This document shows, piece by piece, positions 10,170-60,082 of a stretch of 64,000 nucleotides of DNA (position 1 is its first letter; every line of letters starts with the position of its first letter). This stretch comes from an uncultured Alphaproteobacteria bacterium. Its GTDB lineage: Bacteria > Pseudomonadota > Alphaproteobacteria > Micavibrionales > Micavibrionaceae. The stretch is taken from contig CAVUDD010000005.1 of assembly GCA_963740205.1 (NCBI GenBank), forward strand, positions 368,860 through 432,859, given 5' to 3'. The notes beneath the pieces are model-generated. The model ran no database searches and was not told the origin of the DNA. It was given only the letters and a program-made list of their open reading frames with translations. Position numbers and translations under genes: made by a program.

Positions 10170-12473
10170 ATGGTTCTGGCAACAAATCTGGGGTTTCCGC
10201 GTATCGGCGCAAAACGTGAATTGAAAAAGGCTGTTGAGGCATATTGGAAGGGGTCTTTGTCCCAAGAAGAAATGCTGAAAGAAGCAAGCCAGATACGCAT
10301 GGATAACTGGCAGACTCAAAAGACTGCTGGTATAAATCATATTCCCTCAAATGATTTCTCTTTATATGACCAGATGTTGGACATGTCCTGCCTTTTGGGA
10401 TGTGTACCTGAGCGTTATGAGTGGAATGGTGGTAACGTTGATCTGGATTTATATTTCGCAATGGCTCGCGGGAGCCAAAAGAATGGTCGCGATGTAATTG
10501 CCTGTGAGATGACGAAATGGTTTGACACTAACTATCATTATCTTGTTCCTGAGTTCGAGCCACATCAGGTTTTTACTCTTTCTGCGACAAAAATATTTGA
10601 TCACTATAAACAAGCCAAAGACGCTGGCATTGAAACACGCCCTGTTTTGATAGGCCCCATCACATATCTTTCACTTGGTAAAATGCATGATGATAGTGAC
10701 CCAATGGCTTTGCTCCCTAAACTCCTTCCTGTTTATGAAGAGATTTTAAACCGTCTTGATAAAATGGGTGTTGGTTGGGTACAAATTGATGAGCCTTATT
10801 TGGCAATGGATTTAACCGAATCCCAAAAAACCGCATATGAAAACGCCTATATTGGTTTGAATAACGCGCGTGGTGACATGAAGATAATGCTCACAAGCTA
10901 CTTTGAAGGCTTGCGCGACAATTTGAAACTTGCAACATCATTGCCAGTACAAGGCCTGCATATAGATTTACGCCGTGCGCCTAGTCAGCTTCACGAAGTC
11001 TTATCAAATCTAAATGACGAAATGGTATTATCTTTGGGGCTTGTTGATGGTCGTTCAATCTGGAAAAACAACCTTCGCGACTCTTTGGATATTGTGAAGA
11101 AAGTTACAGATAAACTAGGTAATGATCGCGTGATGATTGCACCAAGCTGTTCCCTTTTGCATGTGCCGATTGATTTGGAACTTGAAGAGAAAATGGATCC
11201 TCAAATTCGCAACTGGATGGCGTTTGCGAAACAAAAGCTTGACGAAATTGCGACACTTGCAGATGCGGTTAATAAGGGTGAGCAAACAGTTGCAGAAAAA
11301 CTGGATGCCAGTGCCAAAATTGCGCAAGAGCGCAAAACATCAGAGCGTATTCACAACAGACAAGTACAAGGGCGTATTGCCTCACTTAATGATGAAATGC
11401 GCAAGCGCAAAAGTCCCTATGAGAAACGTGCTGTAATACAACAAGAGCGCCTTAAATTGCCCATGTATCCAACAACATCCATTGGTTCGTTTCCACAGAC
11501 ACAAGACATTAGAAAAGCCAGAGCTTCCTTTAAAGCTGGCACGTTAAGCGAGCCTGAATATATGACCGCGATGAAAGCCGAAATTGAAAGCTGTGTTCGT
11601 TATCAAGAAGAAATTGATATGGATGTTCTTGTCCACGGTGAGGCCGAGCGCAATGACATGGTTGAATATTTTGGTGAGCAATTGGATGGGTATATATCTT
11701 CCAAATTTGGATGGGTTCAATCCTATGGTTCGCGCTGTGTGAAACCACCAATTATTTATGGTGATGTGTCTCGCCCCAATCCTATGACTGTTGAATGGAC
11801 AAGTTATGCCCAAAGTCTTACTGATCGCCCAATGAAAGCGATGTTGACTGGCCCAATCACAATTCTTATGTGGTCATTTAAACGTGATGATATTTCATGG
11901 GAAGATTCTGCGCGTCAAATTGCATTGGCTATTCGTGATGAGGTTGCTGATCTGGAAAAGGCAGATATTGCCGTTATTCAGGTGGACGAAGCAGCTATTC
12001 GTGAGGGTGTTCCTTTACGTCATGCTGATCGCTCTAACTATTTTGATTGGACGGTGGATTGCTTTAAGTTGTCAACGGCATGTGTAGAGGATGAAACACA
12101 AATACATACACATATGTGTTATTCCGAATTCAATGACATGATTGAGAAGATTGCTGATTTGGATGCTGATGTGATTTCGATTGAAACTAGCCGTTCGCAA
12201 ATGGAGTTGCTGGATGCCTTTGTTGATTTCAAATATCCAAACGAGATTGGTCCCGGTGTCTATGACATTCACTCACCGCGTATTCCAACTAAAGACGAGA
12301 TGGTGGTATTGCTTAAAAAGGCCGCCAAGGTTATTCCCGAGGAGCGTCTTTGGGTCAATCCTGACTGTGGCTTGAAAACACGTGGCTGGCCGGAAGTGAA
12401 ACCTGCACTAGAGAATATGATTGCGGCTGCTAAAGATATGCGCAATAAAACCCAGAAAACAAAAGTTGCTTAA
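10170..12473 (+). CDS. metE: Cobalamin-independent methionine synthase (5-methyltetrahydropteroyltriglutamate-homocysteine S-methyltransferase)
   Basis: 767 aa, with NLGFPRIGAKRELKKA at the N-terminus and HTHMCYSEF...DCGLKTR at the C-terminus. It starts 36 nt after metF. Confidence 0.95.
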   Translation: MVLATNLGFPRIGAKRELKKAVEAYWKGSLSQEEMLKEASQIRMDNWQTQKTAGINHIPSNDFSLYDQMLDMSCLLGCVPERYEWNGGNVDLDLYFAMARGSQKNGRDVIACEMTKWFDTNYHYLVPEFEPHQVFTLSATKIFDHYKQAKDAGIETRPVLIGPITYLSLGKMHDDSDPMALLPKLLPVYEEILNRLDKMGVGWVQIDEPYLAMDLTESQKTAYENAYIGLNNARGDMKIMLTSYFEGLRDNLKLATSLPVQGLHIDLRRAPSQLHEVLSNLNDEMVLSLGLVDGRSIWKNNLRDSLDIVKKVTDKLGNDRVMIAPSCSLLHVPIDLELEEKMDPQIRNWMAFAKQKLDEIATLADAVNKGEQTVAEKLDASAKIAQERKTSERIHNRQVQGRIASLNDEMRKRKSPYEKRAVIQQERLKLPMYPTTSIGSFPQTQDIRKARASFKAGTLSEPEYMTAMKAEIESCVRYQEEIDMDVLVHGEAERNDMVEYFGEQLDGYISSKFGWVQSYGSRCVKPPIIYGDVSRPNPMTVEWTSYAQSLTDRPMKAMLTGPITILMWSFKRDDISWEDSARQIALAIRDEVADLEKADIAVIQVDEAAIREGVPLRHADRSNYFDWTVDCFKLSTACVEDETQIHTHMCYSEFNDMIEKIADLDADVISIETSRSQMELLDAFVDFKYPNEIGPGVYDIHSPRIPTKDEMVVLLKKAAKVIPEERLWVNPDCGLKTRGWPEVKPALENMIAAAKDMRNKTQKTKVA

Positions 12474-12907
12474 ATTTTCTTTGGCGGTTTGTACTCAAAG
12501 AATATCATTTGAGATATTCCATGCATTACTACCCATGTGAGCAAAAATGACGGTAAAGTAAATTTCCATCCTTCCAAAGTAATCTGGAGGTAGATCAGCA
12601 ATGAAAAATCAATCACAGTTCCGAAAAACAAGGCTGCATTCGGCATGGGAAGCCACGCTAAAGTTGCAGCTGGCATAATATTTGGGAAAAGTAAGAATGT
12701 AGACATTGAAGAAAAAACAAACTTTTTCTTTTTTGATGTCCATGATTTCTTTTTTATAAACCATGCAATTAGGCTTACTACAATGATGGTAATTAAGCAG
12801 GGAGCAACAACTATCAAAAAAAACATAAATCTAGCCTCTGGACTGTATTTCCAATTTCTTCTATGAGTATAGCAGTTTAAATGAACTGAAATAAGTTGAT
12901 GTTTCAA
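12470..12907 (-). CDS. Hypothetical membrane protein (the start is more likely the internal ATG at 12826)
   Basis: ORF with several hydrophobic segments. It overlaps the metE stop by 4 nt. The annotated 5' end collides with the divergent ORF at 12896. Confidence 0.35.
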   Translation of the reverse strand: MKHQLISVHLNCYTHRRNWKYSPEARFMFFLIVVAPCLITIIVVSLIAWFIKKKSWTSKKKKFVFSSMSTFLLFPNIMPAATLAWLPMPNAALFFGTVIDFSLLIYLQITLEGWKFTLPSFLLTWVVMHGISQMIFFEYKPPKKI

Positions 12908-47615: not shown

Positions 47616-47691
47616 GTCCCGTTCGTCTAGAGGCCTAGGACACCGCCCTTTCACGGCGGCAACACGGGTTCGAATCCCGTACGGGACGCCA
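47616..47691 (+). tRNA. tRNA-Glu (TTC)
   Basis: 76 nt. The acceptor GTCCCGT pairs with ACGGGAC, followed by G-CCA. The anticodon loop is CTTTCAC and the T-loop is GGTTCGAATCC. Confidence 0.9.
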
Positions 47692-47695
47692 ATTA
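47674..47695 (+). repeat. attL core (tRNA-Glu 3' end)
   Basis: ATCCCGTACGGGACGCCAATTA. It is repeated at 59339-59356 minus the 4 nt GACG. Confidence 0.7.
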
Positions 47696-47805
47696 CTTAA
47701 ATTTTACCATCCAATACAATCCAAAAAACACTAGGTAAATCAACGGTTTTAGACTATAATTTGTCTAAAGGCGTCCGATGCCCTCCACCTAAATCCTAGA
47801 AAAAT

Positions 47806-47853
47806 GGTGGCTTTATTGGTGGCCTTCCAAAATGCAGAAATGTAAAGGCCACC
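47806..47853. repeat. GGTGGC(C/T)TT motif cluster upstream of the integrase: two direct copies plus one inverted copy (putative arm-type/operator sites)
   Basis: GGTGGCTTTATTGGTGGCCTT is at 47806-47826 and AAGGCCACC is at 47845-47853. The latter can pair with 47818-47826, forming a hairpin 4 nt before the int ATG. Confidence 0.5.
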
Positions 47854-47857
47854 AGAA

Positions 47858-49088
47858 ATGAAATTAACAGACCAAAGTTGTAAGTCCGCTAAACCTAAAG
47901 AAAAAACTTATAAAATGGCTGATGGTGGCGGCCTTTATTTCAGAAATTACGCCCAAAGGAAGTAAGTTGTGGCGCCTTAAATACAGGTTTTTGAAAAAGC
48001 AGAAGAAATTATCAATCGGCATATATCCAACTATTACACTTGCAGAGGCTCGTAACCAGCGCGATGAATCCAAGAGACTATTAGCCAATAATCTTGACCC
48101 TGCCGCCATTAAGCAAGAAATTAAGCATAAAATGCATAGTGAGGCCGCCAATACCTTCTCAGTGATTGCCCGTGAATGGTTTGATATAAAAAAGGTTGAA
48201 TGGTCTAAGGCTAATACCGTTCAGATATTAAATCGTTTAGAAAAAGATGTTTTTCCAATTATTGGCAAATATCCTATAAATATGATTACTCATAAAATGC
48301 TTTTAGACCTAGCACATAACGTTAAGGAACGAGGCGCTCATGAATTAGCTAAGCGTATCATTCAAATGTCTGTTCATATTTTTCGCTATGCAATTGTAAC
48401 AGGCAGAGCAGACAAAAATATTGCCGAAGATCTAAAGGGAATGGTCAAATCTGAACCCAAAAGCCATTTTGCGGCCATTGAAGCAAAGGAATTACCTGAG
48501 TTTATATCAGACTTGCGCAATCATAAAGCACGCCTCAACCATCAAACTTACTTAGCCGTAAACTTTATGATGCTTACTTTCGTTCGCACGAGCGAAATGA
48601 TCAAAGCTGAATGGAATGAATTTGATTTTGCAAATAGAGTATGGCTTATTCCTGCTCGCCGCATGAAAATGAATAAAGACCATATCGTGCCTTTATCACG
48701 CCAAGTAATAGCCATGTTAGAGGAATTAAGAGAGATTCATCATCACCCTAAATACGTTTTTCCTAGTCGCATAAACAGGGATAACCACATGAGTAATAAC
48801 ACTGTTCTTATGGCCATAAAGCGAATGGGGTATGCAGGACGCATGACTGGACACGGCTTTCGTGCGCTGGCTATGAGTACCATCATGGAGAAATTAGGGT
48901 ACAGACATGAGGTGCCTGATGCACAGCTTGCACATGCGAAAAAGGGGGATGTGGCAAGAGCCTATGATAGAGCCAAATTTTTAGAAGAGCGCACTTTAAT
49001 GATGCAGGAATGGGCTGATTATCTCGATAACATTGCACAAGGTGGAACAGTAATTAGTGGTAATTTTACAAGAAAAAAGAAGGCTTAA
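47858..49088 (+). pseudogene. int: P4-type tyrosine integrase (DUF4102 N-terminus), one frameshift near 47930-47945
   Basis: ATG 47858 gives MKLTDQSCKSAKPKEKTYKMADGGGL and then stops. The protein continues in ORF 47922..49088 (...SEITPKGSKLWRLKYRF...HGFRA...LAHAKKGDVARAYDR). Confidence 0.85.
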
Positions 49089-49661
49089 ATGTCTTGGTTA
49101 ATAAGATTACAAGCAGATGATTTTTTTAATGCTTATAGGGTATTGAAAGAAAGCGATGACTTAATGATAAGTAAGTTAGAAAATTTGTCTGGCAAACCAT
49201 TGGTGAGTAAAACAGCTTTTGGAGCGTTTCCTGTATCAACGCCAAGTATTGTATGTTTAGCGTTTGCGCTTGAGCTGTATATTAAAAATTTGTATGTAAT
49301 TTTGAAAACCTTAGATAGCGGTAACGAAAAAATTAAACCGCCGCGAGTGCATAATATTCTACAGCTTTTCATGAAGTTACCAGAAGAGGTGCAACAAGAA
49401 ATTAGAGATTTTTCTTCTATACAGGAAATAGTTGCTTTTTATTCAATGGAAATGTTTCCACTATACATAACTAAAGATCAAAACAAAAAACCTATTACCG
49501 ACACACTTGAACAGCAAATTTATAAAATTAGCGATGCATTTGAAAAGTGGCGGTATTCATACGAAAATGGGACACTTCAATTTGAAGAGTCTACAGCATT
49601 AGCTTTGATAGAGGCAGTTAAGTCAATTACTAGCAATGCTCAAAAACGCGCTGTAGCATAA
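49089..49661 (+). CDS. Hypothetical helical protein, possibly with a HEPN-like domain
   Basis: Its start abuts the int stop (TAAATG). ALELYIKNL...G...PRVHNILQLFMKL....ISDAFEKWRYSYE resembles the classic HEPN helix pattern. No search was run. Confidence 0.4.
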   Translation: MSWLIRLQADDFFNAYRVLKESDDLMISKLENLSGKPLVSKTAFGAFPVSTPSIVCLAFALELYIKNLYVILKTLDSGNEKIKPPRVHNILQLFMKLPEEVQQEIRDFSSIQEIVAFYSMEMFPLYITKDQNKKPITDTLEQQIYKISDAFEKWRYSYENGTLQFEESTALALIEAVKSITSNAQKRAVA

Positions 49662-49751
49662 AATATAATCTTTATGGATGATATGGTATTTATTGGTAAT
49701 TGGTAAGATATACGCCTATACTTTTCACATTATTATAATTTGGGGGTTAGA

Positions 49752-50470
49752 ATGGAAAGTGCTGATTACTGGCGTTTGTGCGACCATGTATCTCTATTTC
49801 AAGCAATCATGCTGATTTTAGGTTTTGACCCTTCTGACCAGCTTAGCTGGGATATGGAAGGGAGAAAAAACATTACCCTTCCACGTGGGTATGCTGCTTT
49901 AAAGACGGCAATATCAAACGCTGTTTTGAGTGGTCAAATTGAAGCAAAAAGTCAATCTTTGCTTGATGAGTATAATGGCGATGATTTACCCAATACAGTT
50001 GATATTGATAAGACTATTATTTCTGTAAATCATTAAAAAAATATCTTCAAGATAAAGGATTAAACGATGGCTTTTTCTTTCCAGAAGGGACTATTTTTGA
50101 AGAATATATGGATAAAGATAATCCAAACTATGCGCCTAAACTAGCCGCCGCTGTTATTGCTTGGAAAACAATTGCTAACAATCCAGAATTACAAAAAGGA
50201 AAAACGCCTAAGCAGGCACTCGAAAAGTGGTTGAGAGAAAATGCCAGTAAGTACAATCTTACGAAAGAAGATGGGACGCCAAATGAAACGGGCATACAAG
50301 AGATTAGTAAAATTGCAAACTGGAAACCAGAAGGAGGTGCGGCTAAAACTCCTACCCTTAGTACAGTTCAAAACAACTCACCTACCCCTACTAAAAAACC
50401 ATACAAACTAAGGGTTTTTGGTCAACATACAGTTACATATGATGAGTTAGAAGATGATATTCCCTTCTAA
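49752..50470 (+). pseudogene. Island-associated hypothetical protein ending in an SSB-like ..EDDIPF tail, one frameshift at the A7 run near 50034-50041
   Basis: ORF 49740..50036 and ORF 50108..50470 join in sense (...TIISVN / LKKYLQDKGLNDGFFFPEG...). The upstream extension of the second frame is open back to 50030. Confidence 0.55.
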
Positions 50471-50609
50471 AATTACGGAAGGTTTTTAGTTTTCGTAGGT
50501 CAGGTTATATATTTTATAGGGGTTAGTTTTCTTAACTCTACCATCTATTTTACACGACATGATTTAGCATAGCCTCTCCTTATAGCAAATAGCATTAAGG
50601 AGAACTAAA

Positions 50610-50803
50610 ATGCACAATCAAATCTTACCTGAAACTGGCTTCGTCCGTTTACCTCAAGTTCTGAAAGTCTTTCCTGTTAGTAAATCAACTTGGTGGCGGG
50701 CGTAAAATCTGGCATATATCCGCAACCTGTAAAACTTGGTCTTAAAATGACCGCGTGGCGTGTTGAAGATATTCGCGCTCTTATTAATGCAATGAGCGCC
50801 TAG
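50610..50803 (+). pseudogene. alpA: AlpA-family (MerR-like HTH) phage/island transcriptional regulator, one frameshift near 50697-50702
   Basis: An AAGGAGA SD precedes MHNQILPETGFVRLPQVLKVFPVSKSTWWR and a stop. The +1 frame continues GVKSGIYPQPVKLGLKMTAWRVEDIRALINAMSA*. Confidence 0.7.
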
Positions 50804-50807
50804 ATTA

Positions 50808-51338
50808 ATGGCAAAGCGTCTTTACCCTCATAGACGCGTTAAATATTGGTATGCCTATGACATAGATGATATTTGCGCTTTATTTACTGAATTTGGGCTT
50901 CAGTGCTCAAACAGTACGTAAGTGGGTCAAACTTGGTCTTAAAACGATTGACGCGGGTAAGCCAACCTTAATATATGGCCTTGATCTTATTAAATATCTG
51001 AAACTCCAAAATTCTAAGCATAAGTGTCGCACTCAATTTGACGAATGTTTTGTATGAAATGTCAGGATGCTCGACCCATATTTCAACGCAAAATAGTCGT
51101 GAAACAAAAGGAGAGCTTTTTGAACCTCTCAGGCCATTGTCGTGAATGTAAAACAGTGATGTTTAAATCTTATAAGATCGATGATTTACCTCAAATTAAA
51201 CGAACCTTTCATTTGCTTGATGTTTTGGAATTATATGATTATGAGGCCTCCCCCTTTAAGACTCACTTACAAGGTCAAGACGCCATCCCGTCAAATGAGT
51301 CATTATACGGCGCGCATTATGGGGATTTATTTGAATGA
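50808..51338 (+). pseudogene. HTH + zinc-ribbon protein, two compensating frameshifts (about 50901 and 51045-51052)
   Basis: It has three segments: MAKRLYPHRRVKYWYAYDIDDICALFTEFGL, then SAQTVRKWVKLGLKTIDAGKPTLIYGLDLIKYL...FDE in an alternative frame, then FCMKCQ...GHCRECK... back in the original frame. Its stop overlaps the next start (ATGA). Confidence 0.55.
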
Positions 51339-52360
51339 AAAAAGAAGACAATAAACACTGTCACAATGCCGTAAACGAGAGAGTTAAATATAAATATCGT
51401 AAGCATTTACAACGTATAGCGCAGAGAGATGACAAGACTATTATAGCGGTTCTTAAACACATTCGTGATTATGAGCTATTCACGAACTTTGAAGGGTTTG
51501 AAAAATATAATGGTGATGTTGCTGATAAATATATTCAAGACATGTTTAAGCGTAAATTGGGTATGTCATATATCTCAGAAAATATCCGTATAGTTAAAGA
51601 GTTTTTAAAATGGCTAGAACGTCAACGCGGGTATAGAAGCAAAATTGACTACAATCAGATCGATTACTTGAATATATCGCGTAATCAACAAAAGGCCGCT
51701 AAGGCAGTTAAATATTCAAAGTCATACAGCTTTGAACAGATCATTAATACCGTACGCTCCATGCCTGATAAGACAGATAAGGAAAGGCGTGATAAGGCAA
51801 TTATATCGTTACAGGCTCTTTGCGGTTTACGTATTTCTGAATTACGCACGGTCAAGATGGAAAGCCTTATTGATGAAAGTGGGCAATATTTTATTTATGT
51901 TAGTCCTAAGAATATGAGTGTTAAATTTGCGAAAACTCGCCATGCTAATTTTATGCCCTTACCTGAGGACATAAAACAAAATGTGATTAAATGGCATGAA
52001 TATTTGAAGTTATTAGGCTTTAAGGGTGATGACCCTTTATTCCCTGTTGTGGATAATCGCTTTACAGAAACAAATTTACTACGCCAAACAATACGAAAAG
52101 ATGAGATTAAATCGGACACAACCATCCGCAATATATTTAAAAAAGCGTTTGGGCACGCTGGATACGAATATATTAAGCCTCATTCATTCCGAAAAACTAT
52201 TGCCAGATATGCTGAATTTCAAAAACCCGCTTTTTTAAACGCCGTAAGACAAAGCCTAGGCCACAGTTCAATTGATACAACCTTGAGCAGTTACGGTCAG
52301 TTATCGGATGCGGAGGCGAGGAGAACAATTTCCAGCGGAGAATTTAAGGATACAACCTAA
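51335..52360 (+). CDS. Tyrosine site-specific recombinase (second one in the island)
   Basis: GLRISELR...HSFRKT...LGHSSIDTTLSSYG carries the R..H.R..H..Y catalytic signature. The ORF is intact. Confidence 0.8.
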   Translation: MKKEDNKHCHNAVNERVKYKYRKHLQRIAQRDDKTIIAVLKHIRDYELFTNFEGFEKYNGDVADKYIQDMFKRKLGMSYISENIRIVKEFLKWLERQRGYRSKIDYNQIDYLNISRNQQKAAKAVKYSKSYSFEQIINTVRSMPDKTDKERRDKAIISLQALCGLRISELRTVKMESLIDESGQYFIYVSPKNMSVKFAKTRHANFMPLPEDIKQNVIKWHEYLKLLGFKGDDPLFPVVDNRFTETNLLRQTIRKDEIKSDTTIRNIFKKAFGHAGYEYIKPHSFRKTIARYAEFQKPAFLNAVRQSLGHSSIDTTLSSYGQLSDAEARRTISSGEFKDTT

Positions 52361-52384
52361 AAGCCCCTTGCAGTTGCTGTTTTC

Positions 52385-54067
52385 ATGTTTCATCATGATG
52401 GCTTAATTTATAAAGGATATATCACTGTGCCAACGTTAGATTTTAAGGGAAAAAATTATGTTTATTCCCATCATTTGTCTGTCCCCTTTCGTAGCTTAGA
52501 AGTTGATGCTAAAAAGTCCAAGCCTATAAAGGGTTCAAAGCCTAATATGGATGATAACCTAATTATCCAAGGCGATAATTTGCATGCATTGAAAGCTCTA
52601 TTGCCTAAATATGCAGGTAAAATCAAATGTATCTATATTGATCCGCCTTATAACACGGGGAATGAAGGATGGTGTTATAATGATAAGGTCAACAGTCCCA
52701 CTATGCGCGAATGGCTCAAGGATAATGCCAATCCTGTAGATAAAGATGATTTAGAGCGCCACGATAAATGGCTTTGCATGATGTGGCCACGGCTGCAATT
52801 ACTGCGTGAACTTTTGAGCGATGAGGGAGTTATCTTTATCAGCATAGATGATATTGAAGTTAATAACTTAAGGCTGATGATGGATGAATTATTTGGAGAT
52901 GATAACTTTGTTGCTTCGTTTATCTGGAAGTCTAGGCAAAATAAAGACAATAGGAATAAAAGTGGTGTTTCCGTTGATCATGAATATGTTGTTTGCTTCG
53001 CAAAAAATTTGAACACAAGAAGTTTTCGGGGAGATGAAAGAAAAGAAGGTCAGTACACAAATCCCGACCACGACCCAAGGGGTAACTGGTCAAGCGCTAA
53101 TATGGTAGGACTATTACCAGAAGATCAAAGACCTAATTGCCATTATGACTTAGTAAATCCTGAAACAGGTATAAATTATGGCAAACCAAATATGGGTTGG
53201 AGATACGATCAGAATACAATGGGTAGGCTTATTCAGGAAGATAGAATTTTATGGCCCGCGAGCGAAGATGGAAGACCCAGAAGAAAACTATTTGTTACAG
53301 AATTAGAAAATGAATATACAGGTTATTCTTCTTTAATTGGGAATGATATATATACGAGAACGGGCACTAAAGAATTAAGAGAATATATAAAAATTGATGG
53401 TTTTGAATTCCCTAAGCCCCATGCGCTAATCAAAGATTTCATCGTGCAAACAACAGGGCCAGACGACCTTGTTTTAGACTCTTTCGCGGGGTCAGGAACA
53501 ACTGCCCATGCGGTGCTCGCTATAAATAAAGAAGACGGCGGGAACCGTAAATTTATTTTGGTGGAGATGGAAGATTATGCTAACGATATTACGGCTGAGC
53601 GTGTACGTCGCGTTATTGACGGAGTGCCAAATGTAAAAGATGAAGCATTAAAAAATGGCCTAGGTGGATCTTTTACCTATTGCAAATTAGGAGATGAATT
53701 TGATGTTGAAAAAATATTAAGTGGAGAAAGTCTCCCAAGTTATACCGCATTGGCAAGTTATGTTTTCTATACGGTTACAGGGCAATCGCTGAATAGCGAG
53801 GTTAAAGAAAGCAGCAATTTCTTTATTGGTGAAACCGATTTGTTTGAAGTATATCTAATTTATAAAGATGATATTTCTTATCTACGCTCGAACGGGTCTG
53901 CACTTAACCAAGAAAAACTGGATGTTATTGCTGCGCACAAGCCAAATAACAAAAAACAAAAAGTTGTTTTTGCTAGCGCCAAATATATGAGTCAGGACGC
54001 ATTAAAACCGCATAATATTGTCTTTTGCCAAATCCCCTATGCGATACATAAAATAGCAGGAAATTAG
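52385..54067 (+). CDS. mod: Type III R-M DNA methyltransferase (Mod; N6-adenine/N4-cytosine class, DPPY)
   Basis: Motif IV (IDPPYNTGNEGW) comes before motif I (DSFAGSGTTAHA). The ORF is intact. The real start may be GTG 52427 (VPTLDFKGK). Confidence 0.85.
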   Translation: MFHHDGLIYKGYITVPTLDFKGKNYVYSHHLSVPFRSLEVDAKKSKPIKGSKPNMDDNLIIQGDNLHALKALLPKYAGKIKCIYIDPPYNTGNEGWCYNDKVNSPTMREWLKDNANPVDKDDLERHDKWLCMMWPRLQLLRELLSDEGVIFISIDDIEVNNLRLMMDELFGDDNFVASFIWKSRQNKDNRNKSGVSVDHEYVVCFAKNLNTRSFRGDERKEGQYTNPDHDPRGNWSSANMVGLLPEDQRPNCHYDLVNPETGINYGKPNMGWRYDQNTMGRLIQEDRILWPASEDGRPRRKLFVTELENEYTGYSSLIGNDIYTRTGTKELREYIKIDGFEFPKPHALIKDFIVQTTGPDDLVLDSFAGSGTTAHAVLAINKEDGGNRKFILVEMEDYANDITAERVRRVIDGVPNVKDEALKNGLGGSFTYCKLGDEFDVEKILSGESLPSYTALASYVFYTVTGQSLNSEVKESSNFFIGETDLFEVYLIYKDDISYLRSNGSALNQEKLDVIAAHKPNNKKQKVVFASAKYMSQDALKPHNIVFCQIPYAIHKIAGN

Positions 54068-54069
54068 GC

Positions 54070-56657
54070 ATGTCGGTCACACAACTTAACTCGCTTGCTT
54101 TAAAAGATTATCAGCAAAAAGTTTTGGATACGCTGAGCATTTATCTTGATACACTTGAAGGAACCTATAAGCGTGAAAAAAGAAACTACGCGTTTGATTT
54201 AGAAGAAGGAATTGAAGACGCCTTGCCACCACATAAATCCCCCTATTGCGCCAATGCATGGGAGAAGGTGAAAAGTAAGGTTGCCGTTCCGATCTATAAA
54301 AATGCGAATGGCCAGAATCTACCTAATAGCTGGACGGACAGGATTGATGGCACAGGGCGTAAAATCCCTAACATCTCATTTAAAGTCCCCACAGGGGGCG
54401 GTAAGACCCTTATGGCGGCGTGTTCGTTAGGGCGTATTGCAGGAGACTATTTCAAAACGGCAAAGGGACTCGTTTTATGGGTTGTCCCTTCATCTACTAT
54501 CTATGATCAAACAATGGATGCATTGGGAAATAAAGAACACCCTTACAGAATGCAGCTGGATATTGAATTGGGCGGACGCACCAAGAATATTAGAACGAGG
54601 CGACGCATTTGAATTGGCAGATGTAGAAAGCCAGCTTTGTGTGATGGTGATCATGCTACAATCTTTCAATGTCTCCGCCCGTAGTAAGGATGCTCGTAAG
54701 GTTTTCAGTGATACTGGAAAATACAGCTCATTCTTTCCCGCAGTTGATGATTATAGCGCAAATAATGAATTGCTTTCGCGTGTTCCTAATTTAATGGAAG
54801 CAGACATGCTGGAACGTGATGTTATTCAAGGCATTACTATCAAACATTCCTTAGGTAATGTTTTTCGCTTATGTCGTCCGATCGTTATTATTGATGAAGA
54901 ACATAAAGCGCGGTCACAATCAGCCATTCAAAATATCAATGAATTTAATCCAAAATTTATTTTGGAATTTTCAGCAACGCCACGCGATAAAAGTAACACA
55001 TTGGTGGATGTTGGCGGATATGCTTTAAAACAGGAACAAATGATTAAATTGCCTATACGCGTTGATTCAAGTGATCAGCGCGATTGGAAGACAACTTTAA
55101 ACGCCGCCCATTCAAAGTTACTGTCCCTTTCTAATGATGCCGCAAAGCTAGCAGGGAATAAATGGAACATATATTCGTCCAATAATGGTGATTATTGCAC
55201 AGCCTAGGCGACAAAATGATGATTATGATCACGTTGAAGATATTAAAAAATATCTTATGGACATATGCCAAGTGCAAGAACGCCAAATTAGGATAAAGTT
55301 ATCAGAAAAGAATGAGATTAAAGATGATGATTTAATGAGTAAGGCTTGTCCTGTTCAATATATTATCACCAAAGATGCCCTGCGCGAGGGATGGGATTGT
55401 CCTTTTGCGAGCGTTTTGACCGTTTTAATTCAAGCAAGAAGTGTGGAAGCCCTAACACAGTATATTGGCCGTGTATTACGCCAACCTTACGCAACAGAAA
55501 CCCCTATTGCCTCATTGAATGAAGCATATGTGTTTTGTAGCCGTCAAAATGTTGGGGATGCGGCAAAGGCGATTAAAGATGGATTAGAGGCTGAGGGAAT
55601 GGGCGACATAACGCAAAGCGTTATTAACGAGGGCGAAGGCGGTGGCGATATACAACGTCAAAAGCAGGTTGTTAAAAGAAACAAAAAATACGAAAACAAA
55701 ATTTTCTTACCTTCTTTATCTGCTGTTAATTCAAATAAAACAATATCGCCATTTGACTATTATCGCGACATTTTGGGCGAAATAGATTGGTCACATTACA
55801 AATGCTCAAAACTTCCTATCTTAGCGGATCAAAATCGTATCGACGTTGATACACGTACAGTTGATTATAAAGATAATATTTTAGGTGAATTTGAATTCAA
55901 AGATTACGAGATTGATCTTGATGATGACTTTTTCGCCCTAGAAGTTGAGTATTCTTTGTTAACATCGCAATTAACGGAAAAGATACCAAATCCATTGTAG
56001 GCAAAACGGATTTTGGATGATGTTGTGAAGGTACTGAAAGAAAAAGGGATAAGCGAAAAAATTATTGCTCTGTCAGGGCATGACATAGTCAAACAGATTA
56101 AAGATGATGCTTGGAAGTGGTTATTAATTAAATCTGAAAAGCTCTTTATTGAAAAACCGGATCATAATCAGATTTTATTGAAATTGTTGGCCGCCCCGCA
56201 TACAGAGTTAAATTGGGAAATGGGTGATCAACGCACAATTTATAAAAATCCTGATGAAGCTGAAGCTAGTGATTGGGATAAAAATCTATTCCAACCTCAA
56301 TTTAAAAGTAACTATAACGGCTTAGAAAAGCAGGTTGCAGCTTATATTAATCAAAGTAAGGCGGTTAAATGGTGGCATAGACTTGGCGTTAAGGGGACAG
56401 AATACGCCTTACAAGGTTGGAAGCGTGATAAGATTTATCCTGATTTCCTCATATACGGAGAAAATGACAAATATTATTTTTGTGAAACCAAAGGCAATCA
56501 CCTTGAAAACCCCGATAGTGAGTATAAGCAGAAAGTCTTTGAGTGTTTAACAACCCATTCAAATAAGCAAATCGGCGAATTTAAATTACTAGCAGGCGAA
56601 AAAGAAATCTCTTTTGATCTTATTTATGAGAATGAATGGGAAAGAAAAGTTGATTGA
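54070..56657 (+). pseudogene. res: Type III restriction enzyme Res subunit (SF2 helicase + PD-(D/E)xK nuclease), with two frameshifts and one in-frame TAG
   Basis: Has Walker A (PTGGGKT), a DEEH box (IIDEEHKA), REGWDCP and C-terminal IYPDF...CETKG. Frame changes lie near 54575-54600 and 55160-55190. The TAG at 55998-56000 is in the same frame as ORF 56013..56657. Confidence 0.8.
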
Positions 56658-56695
56658 GAAAAAATTGTAATTAAGTACTTAGGCAAATATTTATT

Positions 56696-58365
56696 ATGGC
56701 TAAATTATATGAAGGAAGTACAAGAGTTTATCTAGCAAAAGATAATCCGCATAAATTTATTAAAGAATTGAAAAAATTTCCAGAGAGCATTTTATTCGTA
56801 ATATATTACGGGGGAAGCAAATGGAATGACTTTGGTTTTAATACAAATTTCAAATTTAAAATATTTTATAATTTAGAAGAAATCTATGATGATAGTATTA
56901 AGTTCTCCTTCTTAGAGGAACCTTATCGTTTATTTAGAAAATTTGATGAAATTTTTATAAATAAGCAGGCAAATATAATTGATAGTAAAGACAGTCCTAA
57001 ATTTTTCACTATGCTCAATGATATGAGAGCATATAGAAACTTTGTTGATTTTTTCACTCCCAGCGAATCTACAGCAATATTATCTGCCGCGAATGATATT
57101 ATATGTCAAAAAATTCTTTCCTTCTCAGAGAGTTGGTATGAAGAAGCCTTAAATACCAAGGTATTTAATCGGTCTTTCATCAGGTCAGGTCAGGCATATT
57201 TTACGTTTCACAATGCGCAGCATGTATTAAATGGCTCTGAGTATAAAAGTATAGAAAAGATTCAAGGCGATTTTACGGCAAATTTTAAAATAGAAGGCAC
57301 TGAAAATGACTATAGTATAGATTTTAAATTTCACGATAGTGCACTTTTGCCCAATAGAATGTCGGTTATGATTGGTAATAATGGAGCAGGAAAAAGCCGA
57401 TCTTTTCATAATATTGCTTCTTCTTTGTTAGATGATGACGAAAGATTTCGTGATAAAGATGGTGGTCGACCAAAGTTAAGTAGACTGATTTGTATTTCAT
57501 CACCATCAGAATTATCAAAAACTTTTCCTAGATACCGTTCTAGGCCCCGTCTACCTTATCTGAAAATAGCCAATGGAAGAGGCGGGAGGTTCAATCTATG
57601 GCCGTGTGAGCAAATAATTAGACTTTTACGCCTAGAAGATAAATTTATAAGAGGGGATAGGTGGAATTTATTTACAAACGCTATTTATAAAGAATTTAAT
57701 CTCAGCGAGTTAGCTCTCCCATTCAAAAAAAACGTTGAAAATGAAGAATATGATATAGGACAAAAGTATATCCTTTTTAAGGATTTAGAAAATTTTAGAG
57801 AAGAACGCGGTCTAGAAACTTACGAAAAGATAGATAAAAAATCTGACCCAGTAAGAGTTGTGAATGATAAAATATTCCCTATGAGTAGCGGAGAGGTCTC
57901 ATTTATAAACTTAATCAGCACGCTGTGTCTCCATATTGAGAATGGAAGTCTAATTTTACTTGATGAACCTGAGAACTTCACCTTCATCCTAATTTAATTA
58001 CTGCGTTGGTTTCAGTGTTAAACAATTTACTCCAAGAAACAGGATCAATATCTATAATAGCGACGCACTCTGTATATTTTGTAAGAGAAGTTACGCGTAA
58101 GCAGGTTCACATTTTTAAAAATAGTAATAATAAAATTACATTGCTAAAGCCGCGTCTGAAAACTTTAGGTGCGGGGATAGATTCAATTTCACAGTTTATT
58201 TTTGAAGATGAGATAACTAGTCGAGTAATAGAAAATATAAAAGAAAAATTGAAGAAAAATCCTAGTGAAGCAAAAGAATTATATGAAAGTATAGAGGACG
58301 AACTGCCCTCGGAAGCCAAAATCGATCTTATTTCTATTATTGATAATAAGGTGGATGAGGCTTGA
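56696..58365 (+). pseudogene. ABC-type (AAA_15/AAA_21-like) ATPase, PtuA-like, with an N-terminal extension of about 220 aa; one frameshift near 57975
   Basis: Has Walker A GNNGAGKS (57374), signature SSGE, Walker B LILLDEPE, then a frame change, then LHLHPNLI...IATHS (H-loop) in ORF 58006..58365. Confidence 0.65.
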
Positions 58366-59249
58366 AAAAATTGAATCCTACAAATTTTGATGATGCTGCT
58401 GCATTAGAAAGTATGGCTTCTAATAAAGCTCTAAAAAGTTATGGTGAGCTTAACAAAGAGAAGCAGTTAATTTTAGATGCATATCAAATTTACTTGGATA
58501 ACGAAGGAAGTGGTTTAGGTTACAATAAGCCTAATGTATCTGATAAATTAAATCAGCATATGTTAGACCATTACAACTCTTCACCGAGCATAGTGAGGAA
58601 TACTATTGATTTCATTAGAAACTCATTATCACCAGATGTGTGTCCTATGTGTGGAAATTTAGGGTCAGGAGGGCAAATTGACCATATTTTCCCTAAATCT
58701 AATTTTCAAGAATTTGCGATTTTTACTAAGAATTTGGTTCCTGCGTGTAAGTGTAATAATTTGAGGGGATCTGCTTTTATAGGTAATGGAAGAGAAAGAG
58801 TATTACACCCATATTTTGACGATATTTTACAAGAAAGGCTATTGATAGCAAAATTTCTTAACGGGCAAGGTATGTTGGCAGCAGATACCCAAGTGGCTGG
58901 TTTAAATATTATAGATCAAAATGATGAAATTATGGAGGCTGTTAACTTTCATGTAGAAAAAATTGTAAAGAAAACAGCTATATTAGATTCTATTAGAAAA
59001 ACGTATGCACAATTCTTACGTAAACCAGATGTCTTTATAATAGGTATTCTTGACAGACCAATAGACATTGATGCATTCGTCGTTCATATTGAGCAACTTA
59101 TTAATAACTCTGATGAAGAGCATGGTAGCCTTAATAATTGGAAGTCTATACTATTTGCGGGCATATTAGATGATAGGGAATTGATGATAAAACTCGTTGA
59201 ACATATTAACGGATTAATAAGTAATTCTATTGATCCAAAATCAGTATAA
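58362..59249 (+). CDS. HNH endonuclease, PtuB-like
   Basis: CPMCG..(9)..IDHIFPKS...NLVPACKCNNLRG is an HNH/zinc-finger core at residues 94-135. Its TTG start overlaps the ATPase TGA (TTGA). Confidence 0.6.
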   Translation: MKKLNPTNFDDAAALESMASNKALKSYGELNKEKQLILDAYQIYLDNEGSGLGYNKPNVSDKLNQHMLDHYNSSPSIVRNTIDFIRNSLSPDVCPMCGNLGSGGQIDHIFPKSNFQEFAIFTKNLVPACKCNNLRGSAFIGNGRERVLHPYFDDILQERLLIAKFLNGQGMLAADTQVAGLNIIDQNDEIMEAVNFHVEKIVKKTAILDSIRKTYAQFLRKPDVFIIGILDRPIDIDAFVVHIEQLINNSDEEHGSLNNWKSILFAGILDDRELMIKLVEHINGLISNSIDPKSV

Positions 59250-59260
59250 TAAATACTAGA

Positions 59261-59282
59261 GGTGGCCTTTTTGGTGGCCTTT
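59261..59282 (+). repeat. GGTGGCCTT motif pair at the right end of the island
   Basis: GGTGGCCTTTTTGGTGGCCTTT has the same doublet architecture as 47806-47826. Confidence 0.5.
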
Positions 59283-59338
59283 AAATTTTTATTAAATAAA
59301 TTATTAATTTAAATCAGTTACTTAATGTCTTTGTTTGT

Positions 59339-59356
59339 ATCCCGTACGGCCAATTA
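59339..59356 (+). repeat. attR core (partial copy of the tRNA-Glu 3' end)
   Basis: ATCCCGTACGGCCAATTA. Confidence 0.7.
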
Positions 59357-59593
59357 TATCAACCATACAATCTGCACAATCTAAAAAAACAAAGGGCTTT
59401 GGGCCAATGTTTGTCTAAAGCCGTCTAGTGTTACCTATAAAATCAGATACGACTATTAGCTCTAAATCGATCATTTTTATTTTTTATATAAAAATACTGA
59501 TTTCCGCAGCTTTTCTTCTCATAACAGCCTTCTATATCATTGCTCAGGGAAAAATTCTGTTGCCTAGATATTCATTTGATAAGGACATTTTTG

Positions 59594-60082
59594 ATGAAAA
59601 AACTTCTCTCTTTTTTGGCTGTGATAATTGTGTTGTCTGGCACAAGCTATGCAAACACCAATCCGCAAGATGTTGTCCAAAGATTGCTTTCTTATTCCGA
59701 CGCCAAGAAACCAGAGCAAGCCAAAGAATATATGACAGAGCGGTCGCATTCATTGTTTGATAGGTTGTATGCGCATGATTTAACACACCTCATTCCCTCG
59801 GATACACAGCTAGTTGATGTAAAGGAAAAAGACGGTTTTCAATATGCCCGCTTTGCCGATCCTCAAAAACCAAAGCAGGGCACAGCAATTCTGGTCTTTC
59901 AGCAAGAGAACTCTATTTTGAAACTGGACTTACCTGAGACATTTCGCACAGGATTTGGCGAAGACTGGCCAAAGAAAATTGATATGATCGAGGCCAGCTA
60001 TTTGTTCACCAAACAATATTACGGTGAAGCTCAAAGCAAAAAAATACTTGAGGCATTTCTTGGTAAAAAAAGTAGTAACTAG
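59594..60082 (+). CDS. Hypothetical secreted protein
   Basis: ATG 59594 gives MKKLLSFLAVIIVLSGTSYA (signal peptide). The track ORF begins further upstream at 59540. Confidence 0.5.
   Translation: MKKLLSFLAVIIVLSGTSYANTNPQDVVQRLLSYSDAKKPEQAKEYMTERSHSLFDRLYAHDLTHLIPSDTQLVDVKEKDGFQYARFADPQKPKQGTAILVFQQENSILKLDLPETFRTGFGEDWPKKIDMIEASYLFTKQYYGEAQSKKILEAFLGKKSSN

Follow-up and report, generated by a model that had tools for sequence, protein, structure and literature searches.

What occupies the 11.65 kb between a tRNA-Glu gene and a second copy of its own 3' end, and whether this DNA could ever leave again, is the question raised by the stretch of 64,000 nucleotides (nt) analysed here (the window; contig CAVUDD010000005.1), which comes from an uncultured alphaproteobacterium of the Micavibrionaceae. 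As a whole explanation, a decayed P4-type integrative island that is anchored in the tRNA-Glu gene is considered probable. The tRNA gene, tRNA-Glu(ttc) with anticodon UUC, was located by ARAGORN at 47616-47691 on the forward strand, in agreement with Rfam, and ARAGORN placed a tRNA-Tyr gene 206 nt before it. The 1.71-Mb assembly, which consists of five contigs and is 92% complete, contains 32 tRNA genes, of which this is the only one for tRNA-Glu.

A search for ATCCCGTACGG followed, after zero to six nucleotides, by CCAATTA gave exactly two matches in the window, both on the forward strand (47674-47695 and 59339-59356), while none of 100 dinucleotide-preserving shuffles contained the pattern. 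The far repeat consists of tRNA nt 59-69, as reckoned from the tRNA 3' end, followed directly by CCA, nt 70-73 (GACG) being absent. A first-pass annotation of this DNA, made from the sequence, had described this repeat of the tRNA-Glu 3' end with its 4-nt gap, and both its coordinates and its description were correct. It had also placed an integrase immediately inside attL, and the integrase gene (int) indeed starts at 47858, 167 nt past the tRNA gene. The ends of the island are made up as follows.

47674-47695, forward strand: attL identity block, comprising tRNA nt 59-69 (47674-47684), GACG and CCAATTA
47678-47684, forward strand: proposed 7-bp overlap CGTACGG, tRNA nt 63-69
47692-47857, forward strand: P' arm, with the proximal motif CCATCCAATACAATCCAAAAAA and the layout seen in P4 attP
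47806-47826, forward strand: direct doublet of arm-type sites in the P' arm, GGTGGCTTT / GGTGGCCTT
47845-47853: inverted arm-type copy AAGGCCACC, just 5' of the int ATG
59250-59338, forward strand: P arm, with an arm-type doublet (GGTGGCCTT twice) at 59261-59281
59339-59356, forward strand: attR, a copy of tRNA nt 59-69 (59339-59349), then CCA and ATTA, without nt 70-73
59357-59445, forward strand: decayed P'-arm-like stretch, about 70% identical to 47696-47790, without an integrase

The island is foreign by composition. GC content is 0.372 in the backbone from int to the second recombinase, 0.383 in the mod-res genes and 0.323 in the ATPase-HNH pair, as against 0.426 and 0.441 in the two flanks and 0.419 in the whole genome. 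In 5-kb windows across the island the GC content deviates from that of the genome by z = -2.0 to -3.6, and the tetranucleotide distance lies in the 93rd-98th percentile. The GC profile, which the first-pass annotation had proposed as a check, thus bears out a foreign origin. Paralogues of the island proteins were not found elsewhere in the genome, and an Rfam scan of the island returned two tRNAs only, with no cI RNA. The genes between the ends are the following.

47858-49088, forward strand: int, P4-type tyrosine integrase pseudogene, with a 1-nt frameshift near 47940
49089-49661, forward strand: intact gene for an all-helical protein of 190 amino acids (aa), abutting int
49752-50470, forward strand: 239-aa gene with one frameshift near 50030, ending ...ELEDDIPF (the SSB C-terminal tip motif)
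50610-50803, forward strand: alpA pseudogene, frameshifted by 1 nt at a run of G near 50696
50808-51338, forward strand: gene for a helix-turn-helix (HTH) protein with a CxxC...CxxC zinc ribbon (HTH/Zn gene), with two frameshifts
51335-52360, forward strand: second tyrosine recombinase, intact, 341 aa
52385-54067, forward strand: Type III Mod methyltransferase (mod), intact, 560 aa, with a full-length MTase_III match (2.8e-191)
54070-56657, forward strand: Type III Res pseudogene (res), matching REase_III (2.3e-55) and ResIII
56696-58365, forward strand: PtuA-like ATPase pseudogene (PADLOC PDC-M01A), with a frameshift near 57975
58362-59249, forward strand: HNH nuclease partner, intact, 295 aa (PADLOC PDC-M01B, phrog_18937)

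All of the cargo genes listed in the first-pass annotation were present, and the integrase domains together with the tRNA repeat uphold its assignment of the element to a P4-family integrase at the tRNA-Glu 3' end. Lesions were judged on the assembled sequence by three-frame translation and by comparison with the intact, single-frame homologues of genome G008. Nine were counted in 11.7 kb: one each in int, the 239-aa gene, alpA and the ATPase gene, two in the HTH/Zn gene and three in res. Only four genes are free of lesions: mod, the HNH gene and those for the 190-aa protein and the second recombinase. Each of the frame lesions noted earlier (int, alpA, the HTH/Zn gene, res and the ATPase gene) was confirmed, the lesion in the 239-aa gene being additional. 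As the island proteins have no paralogues at other loci of the genome, an integrase could not be supplied in trans.

If the frame lesions were sequencing or assembly errors, the island would be intact, possibly mobile, and a working defence island. Most of the frameshifts are single-base changes beside short homopolymers, and the assembly is incomplete and in five pieces, both of which would suit this view; the homopolymer runs concerned are merely 3-4 nt long, and one lesion is a base substitution that creates an in-frame TAG. The flanking 52 kb of core sequence in the window consist of near-gapless open reading frames (ORFs) of normal length, among them ORFs of 932, 787, 767 and 621 aa, with no split genes. 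At the lesion rate of the island, about 13 lesions would be expected in the ten longest core ORFs (about 16 kb). As the core is free of split genes where some 13 lesions were expected, the lesions are taken as real, and an error origin is regarded as highly improbable. The earlier description of an old, immobilised element therefore holds, on the evidence of nine lesions set against core ORFs of normal length.

According to the explanation favoured here, the island would have been inserted into the tRNA-Glu 3' end through site-specific recombination, with the 7-bp crossover most likely at nt 63-69. By analogy with the cryptic P4-like prophages CP4-57 of Escherichia coli K-12 and CP4So of Shewanella oneidensis, the island would supply tRNA nt 70-76 (47685-47691), and the displaced host copy would be attR. 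A crossover 5' of nt 70, and the transfer of the gap to the chromosome on excision, are known from the literature on these relatives and may be presumed to apply to the present island. Precise excision would join tRNA-Glu nt 1-69 to CCAATTA, and the only tRNA-Glu gene of the assembly would thereby lose its discriminator and three bases of the acceptor stem, which we infer to be lethal or nearly so. Because no complete tRNA-Glu gene would be left after excision, the island would be anchored independently of the damage to int and alpA; and because attR is without nt 70-73, the island could be lost only via an illegitimate deletion that spares attL. Either the gap or the loss of int may have come first.

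The imperfection of attR was the one feature of the ends that the first-pass annotation had read as a sign of old decay. A comparison with other islands does not bear this out. An independent tRNA-Glu island (L022), with unrelated flanks, different cargo and an open int frame of 407 aa, has the attR ATCCCGTACGGCCAA, which shows the identical 4-nt gap. In a wider survey, 80 loci that encode integrases 44-89% identical to the present one were scanned downstream for copies of the adjacent tRNA 3' end. When nt 58-69 were strictly required to match with no more than one mismatch, copies were found at 16 of the 51 scannable loci, where about one was expected by chance, and all but one of these 16 diverge from the tRNA exactly after nt 69. 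The int frames in this strictly scanned set are open, except that of the present window, in which the frameshift lies upstream of the matched segment.

The pooled set comprised 28 islands: that of the present window, L016, L017, L022, others among L025-L104, and L106 (CP4-57 of E. coli K-12). Their targets are tRNA-Glu, Gly, Met, Ser, Tyr, Cys and His, and ssrA. Nucleotides 63-69 are exact in all 28, and leftwards of about nt 57 identity drops to the chance level. The invariant block at nt 63-69 is a natural candidate for the overlap region. Past nt 69 the far copies continue as an exact suffix of nt 70-76, except for three without further identity, and in 23 of the 28 the attR copy is without 1-4 nt beginning precisely at nt 70. 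The forms of attR are distributed as follows.

First 1 nt absent: 12 islands
First 2 nt absent: 5 islands
First 3 nt absent: 3 islands
First 4 nt absent: 3 islands (the present window, L022 and a Janthinobacterium island)
Perfect: 2 islands
No further identity after nt 69: 3 islands

Wherever the absent base can be placed unambiguously (L104, L060, L093, L102, L072 and L036), it is always nt 70. These regularities bear directly on the view that the gap is random decay of an unselected scar, devoid of mechanistic or selective meaning. The displaced tRNA fragment has no known function, and the P'-like remnant beside it is clearly decayed, both of which would suit that view. Random decay would nevertheless scatter substitutions and indels, instead of leaving an exact nt 63-69 and then an exact nt 70-76 suffix shortened at its start, and gapped attR sites also occur in islands with an open int, the same gap being present in the apparently intact L022. 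We consider random decay very unlikely.

Two ssrA prophages provide the link between the gap and excision. In E. coli K-12, the CP4-57 attR reads GCCAGC-CCACCA against the GCCAGCTCCACCA of ssrA, T70 being absent. Excision of CP4-57 deletes U357 of tmRNA, the U of the G3:U70 pair, and inactivates the tmRNA (PMC10107115, citing Wang 2009). Excision of CP4So in Shewanella causes the same loss from tmRNA, as seen in the sequenced excised chromosome (PMC5148205). The gap is thus found in the chromosome after excision, which places the crossover 5' of nt 70 and means that the island supplies nt 70-76. The converse arrangement, in which the gap is carried by the element's own attP and the crossover lies 3' of it, is ruled out by free P4 attP, which has a perfect 20-nt core, and likewise by the gap that excision of CP4-57 and CP4So leaves in the chromosome. 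Two further K-12 elements were uninformative: CP4-6 has its integrase at the far end and a different architecture, and KpLE2 at leuX has no recognisable attR remaining. In the literature found, a gapped attR is described for only the two ssrA prophages; in the present set it is the rule across seven tRNA identities and tmRNA.

How the gap might be made is addressed by a more speculative proposal, namely that the nt-70 gap of attR is a general signature of P4-type islands and is produced at the integrase's own cleavage site. Abortive cleavage by the integrase at attR, with a repair that loses 1-4 nt, would leave a newly integrated island holding the 3' end of its target tRNA hostage. Selection for an excision that breaks the tRNA would be insufficient to anchor the deletions at the bond between nt 69 and nt 70, because loss of nt 71 or 72 would be equally damaging. 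We put this proposal forward tentatively and regard it as rather doubtful; if true, an island at a single-copy essential tRNA gene, as here, would no longer be lost by excision.

The first-pass annotation had suggested looking for an empty tRNA-Glu site in related genomes, and this was borne out in part. The sole informative same-genus genome was G004, the closest relative that has comparable flanks, which share about 80% nucleotide identity with those of the window. In G004 the tRNA-Glu gene is followed by 40 nt that resemble the P' arm, including CATCCAATACAAT, and then by CCCCGTACGGCCA, a second partial copy from which the same four nucleotides are absent as from attR of the window. The homologue of the gene at 59594 begins about 190 nt beyond this scar. 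Thus 11.6 kb are absent from G004, but the 40 nt and the scar are left in place of a clean junction. The site looks like the product of an internal island deletion that spared attL, rather than of clean excision, and the attL-sparing deletion predicted above therefore appears to have occurred in this sister species. The gap common to G004 and the window is consistent with an integration that predates the split between the species. Against an ancestral integration, the same 4-nt form is found in the unrelated Janthinobacterium island, and an independent origin is possible.

The gene to the right of attR (59594-60082) is chromosomal, given its homologue in G004 at 78% identity; the start of this gene is duplicated on another contig of G004, which is a caveat to the comparison. 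In G004 (L011, G004:C62), at about 250-290 on the reverse strand, a further T-arm-like fragment, GTGGGTTCGAATCCCATGCACC, lies downstream of the tRNA-Glu scar, with a truncated duplicate of the first part of this gene beyond it. The fragment and the duplicate point to more insertion and deletion history at the G004 site. Two other genomes were tried as empty sites, G001 and G002, and proved uninformative either way, as their tRNA-Glu genes lie in unrelated contexts; the tRNA-Tyr flank of G002 is without tRNA-Glu. The cargo genes were carried by none of the same-genus genomes examined.

The closest homologues of the integrase and the second recombinase come from records named as Micavibrio-like or unclassified alphaproteobacterial metagenome-assembled genomes (MAGs). 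In these the backbone int - accessory gene - alpA - HTH/Zn gene - second recombinase recurs at tRNA-Gly (G008, G009), tRNA-Thr (L023), tRNA-Gln (L041) and tRNA-Glu (L022). All five sibling islands compared (L016, L017, L022, L023 and L041) carry a restriction-modification (R-M) system downstream of the second recombinase, the type of which varies (I, III or ISP/IIG). The present backbone is common to an island family in which the slot past the second recombinase takes varying R-M and other defence genes, and at the level of the family the earlier description of a defence island on a tRNA integrative element is right. The cargo found in this slot is as follows.

G008: AbiD and Type III R-M
L023: Type III R-M and an 863-aa protein
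L041: Type I R-M
L022: Type ISP/IIG enzyme, with SLATT-like and GTP-cyclohydrolase-like genes
Present island: Type III R-M and PDC-M01

The variation in cargo raises the possibility of accretion, in which a backbone island later gained the low-GC ATPase/HNH pair and the repeat at 59339 came partly from an older tandem element. GC content steps from 0.38 to 0.32 at about 56.7 kb, the cargo differs among the sibling islands, and the sequence to the right of attR is P'-arm-like. Similar traces were observed elsewhere, as an N-terminal integrase fragment lies just past attR of L022 and a P'-like stretch lies past attR of G009. On the other side, the arm-type doublets on both arms share the consensus GGTGGC(C/T)TT, those of the P arm matching the ones beside int, and the P arm is 74% identical to that of L022. 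The matching repeats and the homology of the P arm to that of L022 make both ends parts of one P4-type element, and turnover of cargo within one element is compatible with an anchored island and does not compete with it. Accretion is a serious possibility, but the less probable account. The stretch at 59357-59445 is probably the remnant of an earlier element of the same family that has lost its integrase, and together with the remnants in L022 and G009 it suggests, as the simplest reading, repeated integration into one tRNA gene with the older elements displaced downstream and eroded.

Several observations weigh against a single anchored and decayed island. Several of the frameshifts lie at short A or G runs, and the lesion calls derive from the assembly alone. 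A second tRNA-Glu gene could sit in the part of the genome that is absent from the 92% complete assembly. G004 is fragmented, with tRNA-Glu and the downstream gene on separate contigs, so that its near-empty site was pieced together. The further fall of GC content over the ATPase/HNH pair (0.323) means that the cargo may have been assembled in several steps. Lastly, the crossover position was deduced by sequence identity and by reference to the two ssrA prophages, which belong to other bacteria.

The integrase frameshift lies between codons 28 and 30 approximately, and the remainder of int is an open frame of 388 codons. The protein shows the domains Arm-DNA-bind_3 (PF13356, 5e-16), Phage_int_M (PF22022, 1.3e-26) and Phage_integrase (PF00589, 5.8e-21), and the catalytic residues R, HxxR and H..Y are discernible; on the enterobacterial model NF007246 it scored 273 bits, under the cut-off of 434 bits. 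Read through its frameshift, alpA scored 23 bits on Pfam Phage_AlpA (PF05930) against a cut-off of 21, and its homologues are intact in G008, G009, G007 and G029. In G008 and L023 the HTH/Zn gene is unbroken, as one ORF of 171-176 aa.

In the second recombinase the catalytic residues R, HxxR and H..Y are likewise discernible, and more than 300 database homologues were found at 62-85% identity. Together with the HTH/Zn gene it forms a conserved module, and it is more conserved than the integrase on the tRNA side. A search for conserved repeats fit to be its sites (16-mers, one mismatch, four sibling islands) found none. An inverted repeat, I2 (51312-51333 / 54230-54251; 22 nt, 86% complementary), which surrounds the recombinase and mod, was rejected because about as much is expected by chance in 12 kb; the four sibling islands yielded no counterpart by the same criterion, which also missed I2 itself in the window.

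The 190-aa protein was called HEPN-like in the first-pass annotation, and this is possible, but not established. Homologues lie at the matching position in four other islands, and its invariant residues are E62, K66, H88 and R155-Y156. An AlphaFold (AF2) model has a predicted local distance difference test score (pLDDT) of 80.6, and the top Foldseek matches of this model in the PDB are HEPN proteins, at weak E-values of 0.17-2.6 and target-normalised template modelling (TM) scores of 0.35-0.49. The Rx4-6H motif is absent from the protein, and no match was found in Pfam, PADLOC or PHROG. A separate SSB-tail protein had also been described. The SSB-like tip is there, but it belongs to the C-terminal piece of the frameshifted 239-aa gene, the two pieces of which had been read as separate ORFs of 98 and 120 aa. 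In G008 the homologue is an intact single ORF of 237 aa that ends DDLADDIPF (L017 1548-2261). The 239-aa gene had no match in Pfam, PHROG, NCBIfam or PADLOC.

The claim that the island is acting as a small defence island is doubtful: it does carry a Type III R-M system and an ATPase/HNH pair, but of their four proteins Mod and the HNH nuclease alone are unbroken. The Res sequence aligns collinearly with the intact 870-aa Res of G008, but is spread over three frames and contains one TAG; the two frameshifts lie near 54585 and 55150, and the in-frame TAG is at 55998-56000. In the ATPase gene the 1-nt frameshift lies directly past the Walker B motif LLDEPE; the N-terminal and C-terminal pieces match PDC-M01A at 1.8e-25 and 1.5e-23, respectively, and PtuA at 8.1e-15. 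The HNH partner, the start of which overlaps the ATPase stop in a two-gene operon, matched PDC-M01B (9.9e-29), phrog_10378 HNH (5.9e-18) and, weakly, PF01844 (0.01). Since Res is broken three times and the ATPase once, neither defence system is expected to work, and both are probably dead. Res is commonly lost before Mod, as prior loss of Mod is lethal for the cell. The same order of loss would fit the present island, in which the intact Mod may persist as an orphan methyltransferase. In L023 the Type III mod gene (11097-12801) is split into called genes of 139 and 424 aa, so decay of R-M cargo is not peculiar to the present island.

Taken by itself, the island is a dead representative of an ordinary type, the defence island at a tRNA gene. 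Of the interpretation given in the first-pass annotation, the kind of element and its decay were upheld, and the meaning assigned to the imperfect repeat and the current defence function were not. The family to which the island belongs is undescribed but widespread among Micavibrio-like alphaproteobacterial MAGs and has a fixed backbone with varying R-M systems downstream, and the slot past the second recombinase is a ready place to look for new defence genes. The anchoring of the attR gap at nt 70 points to the crossover position for this integrase family. It also suggests a general route to fixation, in which an essential tRNA comes to have its end encoded by island DNA, on which the host then depends.

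Among known systems, the satellite phage P4 has an integrase with the same arm-binding, central and catalytic domains as that of the island, also targets a tRNA gene at its 3' end, and shares with the island an identity block that begins at about nt 57-59 and a small HTH protein of the AlpA/Vis type. P4 attP likewise has arm-type doublets on both arms and an inverted copy at the start of int, and its P'-proximal motifs (TCCAA..CATCCGA..GTCCAAA) are similar to the proximal motif of the island. Unlike P4, the island is without a primase/helicase (alpha), the capsid-hijacking genes sid, psu and delta, and cI RNA; no primase/helicase or sid/psu/delta domains were found in its ORFs with Pfam, NCBIfam and PHROGs. 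Its second tyrosine recombinase and HTH/Zn gene, in turn, have no counterpart in P4, and its target is tRNA-Glu where that of P4 is leuX.

The R-M genes resemble EcoP15I-like Type III systems in the order of Mod and Res, in the full-length MTase_III and REase_III matches and in the ResIII helicase motifs, but differ from them in the threefold interruption of Res, which would leave Mod an orphan. The ATPase/HNH pair resembles Septu (PtuA ATPase and PtuB HNH) and PDC-M01, which are also two-gene operons with an overlapping stop and start. Its best PADLOC matches are PDC-M01A and PDC-M01B, the PtuA models being much weaker, and it differs from both systems in that its ATPase is frameshifted. To our knowledge, PDC-M01 is a candidate system with no published experimental validation.

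The closest parallel to the anchoring is given by CP4-57 and CP4So, both located at ssrA, which also have int beside the target, alpA, and defence and toxin-antitoxin cargo. In both, attR is without the equivalent of nt 70 (seen directly for CP4-57), and excision inactivates the host gene (PMC10107115, PMC5148205). In these prophages the host gene ssrA is dispensable, a single U is lost, the prophages still excise, and the event is interpreted as a regulatory switch. In the present island the gene at stake is the sole one for tRNA-Glu, attR is short of four nucleotides, the discriminator among them, and int and alpA are broken; the outcome would be anchoring rather than switching.

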